From: a virus
Taxonomy: Duplodnaviria > Caudoviricetes
IMG/VR virus record: IMGVR_UViG_3300037466_003648
Span: 32,001 to 96,000 of that record
Strand: one strand, 5' to 3'
Length of the DNA stretch: 64,000 nucleotides
Shown: one piece after another, positions 23,527-24,468 of the stretch
Layout of the letters: the number at the start of each line of letters is the position of its first letter
Numbering within the stretch: the first letter of the stretch is position 1
Made by a program: the position numbers and the translations under genes
Notes under the pieces: model-generated
The model's database searches: none
What the model saw: only the letters and a program-made list of their open reading frames with translations
Told to the model about the DNA's origin: nothing

Positions 23527-24468
23527 ATGTTCGAGCGGTACACCGAGAACGCCATTAAGGCGATCATGCTCGCCCAGGAAGAGGCTCGCCGTCTCGGCCA
23601 CAACTACGTCAGCACGGAGTTTGTCCTGTTGGGATTGATCGGTTTGGGTGAGAACAGCCCGGTCTACCGCGCCTTGGTGAAGTTGGGCGTCAGCTCGCCT
23701 CTCAAGACTGCGCGTCTTTTGGTCGAGCAGAGGGTCGGCAAGGGCTCCGGCTTCGTTGGGGTCGAGCTGCCCTTCACGCCACGCATGAAGCGCTCGATCG
23801 AAGTCTCGTGGAACACCGCCCGCGAGCTGGGCCACAACTACATCGCGCCGTTCCACGTCCTGTTCGCCATCATCGCGGAGGAAGAGAGTACAGCGCGTGC
23901 CGTGCTGTTCGATATGGGCATCATCGACCTGGAGACGTTCAAGTCGCTGGTCGTGGACGAGGCTTCGCGTGCTGCAGTTGCCAAGACCGACAGCATCTTG
24001 CAGGCGGTCAACGAGAAGCGTACCGCCGACGAGCGTCGGAACGAGAAGCAGCGTGCGTGGGACAAGAGCTACATGGCGATGGCCCATATCATCGCTGGTC
24101 ACTCTCACGACCCCAAGTTCAAGGTCGGTGCCATCGTCGTCAACGACCTCAACGGCGCCATCGTCGGTCTCGGCTACAACGGTCGCGGCAAGGGTCGTCC
24201 CAACGACCGTCTCTCGATGGAAACGGGCCAGAGCGGCTTCGTCCATGCCGAGATGAATGCCATTGCCCGTGTCTCGTGGGAGATGACGTGTACCTACACG
24301 CTCTACACCACCCTGGCGCCCTGCATGGTCTGCGCGGGTCTGGTTCTGAACAACCCCATCAAGCGGGTCGTCTACGGCCAGATCTACAACGATGACAAGA
24401 CCGGCGTCGAAGAGCTGATTGGCGGCTTGGGGGCGCATCTCGTCCACCATTGTCCGCACCATTCCTAA
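23527..24468 (+). CDS. ClpC-type Clp-N domain fused to dCMP/cytidine deaminase
   Basis: MFERYTENAIKAIMLAQEEARRLGHNYV...PFTPR; C-terminal KVGA, GYNG, HAEMNA, PCMVC. Confidence 0.88.
   Translation: MFERYTENAIKAIMLAQEEARRLGHNYVSTEFVLLGLIGLGENSPVYRALVKLGVSSPLKTARLLVEQRVGKGSGFVGVELPFTPRMKRSIEVSWNTARELGHNYIAPFHVLFAIIAEEESTARAVLFDMGIIDLETFKSLVVDEASRAAVAKTDSILQAVNEKRTADERRNEKQRAWDKSYMAMAHIIAGHSHDPKFKVGAIVVNDLNGAIVGLGYNGRGKGRPNDRLSMETGQSGFVHAEMNAIARVSWEMTCTYTLYTTLAPCMVCAGLVLNNPIKRVVYGQIYNDDKTGVEELIGGLGAHLVHHCPHHS

Follow-up and report, generated by a model that had tools for sequence, protein, structure and literature searches.

The window analysed here, 64,000 nucleotides in length, corresponds to bases 32001-96000 of a complete virus genome of 205,180 bp with direct terminal repeats. 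At positions 23527-24468 on its plus strand lies a single uninterrupted open reading frame (ORF) that starts with ATG and encodes a protein of 313 residues, P0001, in which a double Clp_N repeat of the kind found at the N-terminus of ClpC is joined to a deaminase of the CDA fold. The gene is embedded among genes of nucleotide metabolism, as follows:

22419..23084, plus strand: guanylate kinase gene (Pfam Guanylate_kin, 1.3e-23; phrog_1815), with the likely true start at ATG 22491
23050..23526, plus strand: DUF7768 / nucleoside 2-deoxyribosyltransferase-like gene (Pfam, 9.3e-26; phrog_355, 1.9e-17), directly upstream of the fusion
23515..23520, plus strand: strong Shine-Dalgarno sequence AAGGAG, 6 nt 5' of the ATG, read directly from the sequence
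23527..23928, plus strand: double Clp_N repeat (ClpC N-domain), residues 1-134 (Pfam, PHROGs, PDB sequence search, Foldseek)
23929..24054, plus strand: helical linker, residues 135-176 (AF2 model)
24055..24426, plus strand: dCMP-deaminase (CDA-fold) domain, residues 177-300 (Pfam, PHROGs, PDB, Foldseek, NCBIfam)
24445..24468, plus strand: C-terminal His/Cys tail HHCPHHS and stop codon (alignment)
24481..24591, plus strand: hydrophobic ORF of 36 codons with its own AGGAG, directly downstream of the fusion, read from the sequence
24597..24615, plus strand: hairpin resembling a terminator, with a T-run after it, probably closing the operon and located after the 36-codon ORF
28430..29299, plus strand: ThyX-type thymidylate synthase gene, 4 kb downstream of the fusion

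The upstream gene ends with a stop codon (23524-23526) that immediately adjoins the ATG of the fusion gene. Hairpins followed by T-runs are not more numerous in the region than expected by chance, and the one at 24597-24615 is suggestive by its position only.

Both halves of P0001 were recognised well above the family cut-offs of Pfam, with Clp_N matching in two stretches (64.2 bits against a cut-off of 20.7) and dCMP_cyt_deam_1 (PF00383) matching residues 177-284 (70.7 bits against 25). Among the PHROGs, the best correspondence was to the dCMP deaminase family phrog_174 (E 8.8e-34) and, over residues 1-144, to the unannotated phrog_35667 (E 3.4e-25). The AF2 model (mean pLDDT 79) comprises the N-domain helices, a long linker helix and a CDA-fold core; the linker helix (residues 135-164) kinks and then runs on into the first deaminase helix (residues 167-190; block pLDDT 68-88), the geometry between the domains being uncertain at a pTM of 0.47, and the loops 74-89 and 222-236 are modelled with low confidence. 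Foldseek searches with this model returned 5gui and dCMP deaminases as top matches, and no solved chain spanning both halves. A Pfam scan of P0001 found no AAA+ family, the deaminase standing where the D1 and D2 modules would follow, and P0001 is therefore not a ClpC. The original prediction had described a complete double Clp-N repeat of about 150 residues joined in frame to a Zn deaminase; the in-frame fusion was borne out by Pfam, PDB and Foldseek and the intact HAE and PCxxC motifs by direct reading of the sequence, but the N-terminal part had to be redrawn as an N-domain of about 134 residues followed by a helical linker of about 42 residues.

The same protein is encoded on two contigs, and a variant differing by one residue (P0256, R176C) on three others, the longest of which measures 117,930 bp. 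Furthermore, an independent Logan assembly contains P0002, a 306-residue protein of the same architecture that is 56% identical to P0001 over its full length. GC3 hardly varies along the gene (0.85, 0.81 and 0.82 in the N-domain, linker and deaminase, respectively, and 0.83 in the whole ORF, a value typical for the genes of this genome), base composition is likewise uniform over the junction, and no internal start preceded by a Shine-Dalgarno sequence was found near the border between N-domain and deaminase. Given the five contigs, the homologue from another data set, the even composition and the absence of such a start, an assembly chimera or a frameshift is very unlikely, and the fusion can be taken as genuine, as the original prediction had assumed.

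The architecture is very rare. In 50,697 phage genomes, no record covered at least 80% of P0001, and among 5.8 billion non-redundant proteins PF02861 and PF00383 are combined only in the cluster of P0001 itself and in P0002 (two 90% clusters). Likewise, of the 254 proteins fetched through cluster search and HMMER, only P0001 and P0002 carry a deaminase behind Clp_N, to which P0256, retrieved later, is to be added as a variant of P0001; the exhaustive HMMER search covered 1.84 billion representatives, and an unfused representative such as P0007 may conceal fused forms in the library of 50% representatives. These searches revealed no longer or split form of the fusion and no longer protein bearing a P0001-type deaminase, and the ESM Atlas contains no cluster of at least 50 members with the Clp_N-deaminase architecture. 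Scans of IMG/VR with the whole of P0001, the guanylate kinase and the DUF7768 protein retrieved no close relative of this phage, and the alignment-based scan of that collection retrieved distant deaminases only. The literature on Clp_N, phages and deaminases yielded a single, unrelated mention and no description of the fusion. Each half belongs to a known family, and for their combination no description or annotation was found in the databases and literature searched, in agreement with the initial impression that the fusion was not a recognised one.

The deaminase half carries the motifs GYNG (residues 216-219), HAE (H240-A241-E242, at 24244-24252) and PCxxC (P265-C-M-V-C269, at 24319-24333), all three invariant among the aligned relatives. 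In comparisons with PDB sequences, it matched dCMP deaminases best, namely those of human (2w4l, 1.8e-14), phage T4 (1vq2, 1e-11) and phage S-TIM5 (4p9c, 2.6e-10), along with the enzymes of PBCV-1 and S. mutans, the whole set spanning 1.8e-14 to 2e-9, and the best cytosine and tRNA deaminases came behind at about 2e-7. The NCBIfam model for ComEB gave 47.4 bits, under its equivalog cut-off of 219. Judging from these matches, this half of P0001 is a dCMP deaminase of divergent sequence and not a ComEB equivalog. It has the CDA fold and the GYNG, HAE and PCxxC motifs in common with T4 Cd (1VQ2), S-TIM5 (4P9C) and human DCTD (2W4L) and, as is the case for phage and cellular dCMP deaminases, its gene lies in a nucleotide module alongside a thymidylate synthase. 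What distinguishes P0001 from the T4, S-TIM5 and human enzymes is the addition of 176 residues of ClpC N-domain and helical stalk, together with a clade-specific loop (222-236) and the His/Cys tail. We also considered, and rejected, a deaminase of the defence type (AvcD / anti-phage dCTP deaminase), the match being limited to the catalytic core.

The clade to which this deaminase belongs is very small, with nine 90% clusters at E <= 1e-10. It includes unfused phage deaminases (P0007, P0009, P0025, P0029, P0030 and P0033) that are 63-76% identical to the deaminase of P0001. The closest of these, P0007 and P0009, lack a Clp_N domain, and their 36-residue N-terminal extensions contain no recognisable remnant of either the linker or Clp_N. 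The deaminase tree leaves the branching order within the group of P0001, P0002, P0007 and P0009 unresolved. The four closest deaminases of the clade share a C-terminal tail of the form [HC]CP[HN][HQ], and the other sub-clade has a longer tail ending in CC...GPxCG[LV]Y; these Cys/His-rich tails may serve as additional metal sites or as motifs for modification.

The complete 205-kb genome encodes no CDA-fold deaminase and no Clp_N protein other than the fusion, and ThyA is absent from it altogether. The ORF of the ThyX-type synthase scored 57.8 with the NCBIfam thyX model, under the cut-off of 87.9. Within this ORF (60490-61161 of the genome, G000), the stretch matching positions 60-190 of the Thy1 profile comes first, positions 15-57 are weakly matched further on without a change of frame, and the protein could be circularly permuted or rearranged. 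A related arrangement was found on a 33-kb metagenome contig (L011), where the guanylate kinase gene is followed directly by an unfused deaminase and, 1.2 kb further on, by ThyX. A metagenome scan gave unfused deaminases only, and in none of these related loci was a Clp_N gene found within reach of the deaminase. The N-domain was thus added to a phage dCMP deaminase that already existed and that feeds ThyX.

Residues 1-132 of P0001 matched the N-domain of chloroplast ClpC1 (5gui) with an E value of 4.4e-39, compared to about 3e-28 for Mtb ClpC1 and about 1e-24 for B. subtilis ClpC among PDB sequences, and the fold of the N-domain was matched by Foldseek with a TM of 0.79 by target. The best matches in the large databases were canonical ClpC proteins from Cyanobacteria and from the non-photosynthetic lineages related to them (59-62% identity), and no orphan Clp_N protein was nearer to the P0001 N-domain than genuine ClpC. 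The P0002 N-domain shows 81-82% identity with canonical ClpC, but only 51% with its counterpart in P0001. By its closest matches, then, the N-domain of P0001 is of the cyanobacterial/plastid ClpC type. A putative major head protein of 368 residues, encoded outside the window, matched, in a comparison covering all phage records, only cyanophages of the Microcystis Ma-LMM01 group and of Microcoleus (about 1e-39, 29-31% identity). Taken together, the type of the N-domain and the head-protein matches suggest that the phage host is probably a cyanobacterium and that the module is likely host-derived.

The degree to which the ClpC sequence is retained differs between the two fusions. Invariance reaches at least 95% in 124 columns across a reference set of 57 N-domains from canonical ClpC; P0001 keeps 79 of these and has lost 45 (36%), and P0002 keeps 102 (82%) and has lost 22. 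The N-domain of P0001 has thus drifted far from the near-frozen sequence of host ClpC, and it has done so unevenly, the invariant positions kept amounting to 84% in alpha1-alpha2, 71% in alpha5, 42% in the loop plus alpha3 and 42% in alpha6-alpha7. Because one half of the domain has lost 58% of its invariant residues, it is not a faithful full mimic. Nevertheless, F2, T6, T30/E31, F83, T84 and E92 are kept. Of these, F2, F83 and E92 are the equivalents of F2, F80 and E89 of Mtb ClpC1, ligand-groove residues that are critical for cyclomarin binding and conserved in ClpC2 (PMC10030653). P0002 has F2, W and E at these positions. The first Thr-Glu motif is also kept in P0001 (T30 E31), the second being replaced by P108 F109, whereas both motifs are intact in P0002. 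We take the two motifs to represent the two pseudo-symmetric phosphoarginine-type sites of B. subtilis ClpC; by this assignment, at most one of the two sites would survive in P0001.

Eight positions are altered in both fusions, which equals the chance expectation (45 x 22 / 124 = 8), with one derived residue in common, and an AU test on the N-domain tree neither supported nor rejected the grouping of both fused N-domains in one clade (p 0.50). This test, the shared changes and the deaminase tree are compatible with one capture of the N-domain as well as with two. The fold is intact and confidently modelled in both lineages, although their strongly constrained deaminase halves have already diverged by 29%, which argues for purifying selection, acting on only part of the surface.

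Stand-alone ClpC N-domains have precedents. Mycobacterial ClpC2, a stand-alone homologue of the ClpC1 N-domain, acts as an antibiotic sponge and a phosphoarginine-sensitive repressor (PMC10030653, PMC13345244), so the decoy role that the original prediction had ascribed to such copies is documented. Like ClpC2, P0001 contains a ClpC N-domain without an AAA+ motor, keeps the equivalents of F2, F80 and E89 and has, at most, a single surviving phosphoarginine-type site (for ClpC2, see PMC13345244); ClpC2 entries of the PDB matched P0001 with E values of 7.4e-10 (9p2p) and 1.8e-8 (8ad9). ClpC2, however, has a dimerising domain at its N-terminus, by which DNA-binding oligomers are stabilised, and its Clp_N fold follows at the C-terminus (PMC10030653, PMC13345244), whereas in P0001 that fold is N-terminal to an enzyme, encoded by a phage and of the cyanobacterial rather than the actinobacterial type. 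Since the domain order differs and no separate domain stands ahead of Clp_N, P0001 is not a ClpC2 orthologue.

Orphan Clp_N proteins are encoded on ten IMG/VR contigs (L029-L038) with GC contents of 53 to 69%, as well as by the mycobacteriophages Myrna (gp251, at 2471-3178 of L027) and Phabba. They are 163-267 residues long, start with MFER[FY]TE and carry a double Clp_N repeat as their only Pfam domain. These orphans, phrog_35667 included, share with P0001 this start, the N-terminal double Clp_N and the lack of an ATPase, but carry no enzyme; they are 28-42% identical to the P0001 N-domain, none is characterised, and they look like a recurrent, uncharacterised type of phage gene. In cyanobacterial non-ATPase proteins, an N-terminal Clp_N is combined with DAHL, Roadblock/LC7, SHOCT, DnaJ or TPR; here the same N-terminal module (45-56% identity) is mounted on unrelated parts, but these proteins are cellular and, among those fetched, without a deaminase. 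We also observed many long cellular proteins (P0121-P0129 and others, up to 1,762 residues) with 3-8 tandem ClpC-type N-domains, and among the tandem and appended Clp_N proteins those with a source name are mostly cyanobacterial. In these proteins, the ClpC docking module is used on a large scale and in ways that are uncharacterised. Plant ClpT1 and ClpT2 are stand-alone, plastid-lineage ClpC N-domain-like proteins that lack a motor and bind the ClpPR core. They differ from P0001 in acting on the protease core and in having no fused enzyme, and are absent from the PDB matches of P0001 at E <= 1e-5.

The anatomy of the fusion, the origin of its halves, its rarity, recurrence and genomic context, and the retention of its fold are established. 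On this basis we propose, with a probability of roughly 45%, that P0001 is an active dCMP deaminase that also displays a host-derived mimic of the ClpC N-domain, which would serve as a decoy or dock by binding the ligands of that domain. The deaminase half would convert dCMP to dUMP and supply the phage ThyX, as the unfused deaminase would in related phages. The N-terminal half would be a copy of the ClpC surface on which adaptors and tagged substrates are received; without the AAA+ motor, it could bind but not unfold. Solved dCMP deaminases are hexamers, and an oligomeric deaminase bearing N-domains on helical stalks would present several ClpC-like docking modules. These might capture ClpC N-domain ligands, for example adaptors, in competition with host ClpC, and host ClpC-ClpP proteolysis would be damped or redirected during infection. 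The catalytic activity, oligomeric state and ligand binding of P0001, as well as its effect on host proteolysis, are what we infer here.

Several observations favour this dual function: the host-type N-domain, the cyanophage matches of the head protein, the position of the protein as sole deaminase and sole Clp_N protein, the presence of ThyX without ThyA, the module of L011 and the kept groove residues, as well as an N-domain that remains foldable, matches the rest of the gene in codon usage and occurs in two lineages. In addition, ClpC2 sets a precedent for a sponge (PMC10030653), orphan Clp_N genes recur on ten IMG/VR contigs and in Myrna, and NblA, which is exploited by phages, binds ClpC (PMC12695635). 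The original prediction had suggested that the phage either couples nucleotide supply to Clp proteolysis or titrates host ClpC adaptors, and it is partly supported: titration of ClpC ligands is consistent with the host-type N-domain, the kept F2, F83 and E92 and the one kept Thr-Glu motif, both adaptor binding and the coupling being hypothetical. Other observations count against it. With 79 of 124 invariant positions kept, 42% in each of the two most eroded parts, and the second Thr-Glu motif destroyed, the N-domain cannot mimic the whole ClpC surface. Moreover, genes for NblA, ClpS or ClpP, which would have indicated a Clp-directed programme, are absent from the phage, the N-domain is dispensable in near kin, as P0007 and P0009 do without it, and the modelled arrangement of the two domains is uncertain.

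Alternatively, the N-domain could act in cis, docking the deaminase to a ClpC partner or controlling its stability or activity, and host proteolysis would then not be globally affected; the enzyme might, for example, be shielded from adaptor-mediated degradation by ClpC or be placed in a nucleotide-synthesis complex. The predicted continuous helix leading into the first deaminase helix suggests a fixed geometry rather than a loose tether, the Clp_N modules of cyanobacteria are mounted on unrelated C-terminal domains, as expected of a general docking module, and the asymmetric decay in P0001, with 71-84% of invariant positions kept in one half and 42% in the other, fits specialisation on a single partner. 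However, the nearest deaminases work without the domain and no partner is known. Regulation of dCMP deaminases is by dCTP and dTTP, and we know of no role in it for a fused N-domain. We regard a role in cis as possible, although rather unlikely. A stronger version of the decoy reading, to which we would give similarly guarded credence, is that the oligomeric enzyme serves as a scaffold on which mimics of the ClpC N-domain are arranged in a ring. Such a ring would trap adaptors of host ClpC or tagged substrates in a multivalent manner, and ClpC-ClpP would be shut down or redirected. If so, P0001 would represent a new class of phage anti-proteolysis factor, and the orphan Clp_N genes (Myrna gp251, phrog_35667 and those of L029-L038) would be simpler members of that class.

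It is unlikely that the N-domain is a passenger or structural add-on, that is, a captured 5' end of host clpC that aids only folding, solubility or oligomerisation and whose binding function is decaying. The loss of 36% of the ClpC-invariant positions, including one Thr-Glu site, would be expected of a passenger, as would the lack of the domain in the sister deaminases, and the chance-level number of shared changed sites gives no sign of a common new function. Against this, the domain of about 134 residues is intact in two lineages and free of stops and frameshifts, it follows the codon usage of the genome, its helices are modelled with high confidence, and P0002 keeps a share of the invariant positions far above the expectation for neutral drift at that depth. 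Still less probable is that the deaminase half acts on dCTP, a modified cytosine nucleotide or nucleic acid, with the N-domain aiming it at its target. The ComEB score far under the equivalog cut-off, the clade-specific and poorly modelled loop 222-236 and the fit of the catalytic core to models of anti-phage dCTP deaminases could be read in this way, but dCMP deaminases account for all of the best matches in the PDB and among the PHROGs, the three motifs are present, and ThyX is linked to the gene both here and in L011. Finally, the merging of two genes by an assembly chimera or a frameshift error can practically be dismissed: although the source is a metagenome, no support for it was found, and it conflicts with the five contigs, the homologue in another data set, the uniform composition across the junction and the completeness of the genome with its direct terminal repeats.

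For cyanobacteria, ClpC-ClpP is an essential protease, and cyanophages already exploit it by way of the ClpC adaptor NblA (PMC12695635). If P0001 copies the ClpC docking domain, it would provide a second and opposite phage route onto this protease, and would offer the first functional lead for the orphan phage Clp_N genes and the cyanobacterial non-ATPase Clp_N proteins. The idea of a decoy or dock is testable because the activity of the deaminase is easily read out and its oligomer is probably a defined one. Although its function rests entirely on what we infer, the fusion is a clean lead on phage interference with ClpC. Even if the N-domain is a mere passenger, the fusion would be a clear example of the capture of a host domain onto a phage enzyme.

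Elsewhere in the window, the ORFs at 24628-25263, 25155-25958 and 29328-30353 had no Pfam or PHROG match. The first two of these and the ORF at 26045-26380 are otherwise dissimilar but have a C-terminal C-x2-C-x2-Q-F-x-C-[LM]-A-G in common. The gene at 20450-21946 encodes a coiled-coil protein of 498 residues with a GC3 of 0.92, in which residues 266-294 match the C-terminal domain of ribosomal protein L7/L12 (E 1.3e-7).
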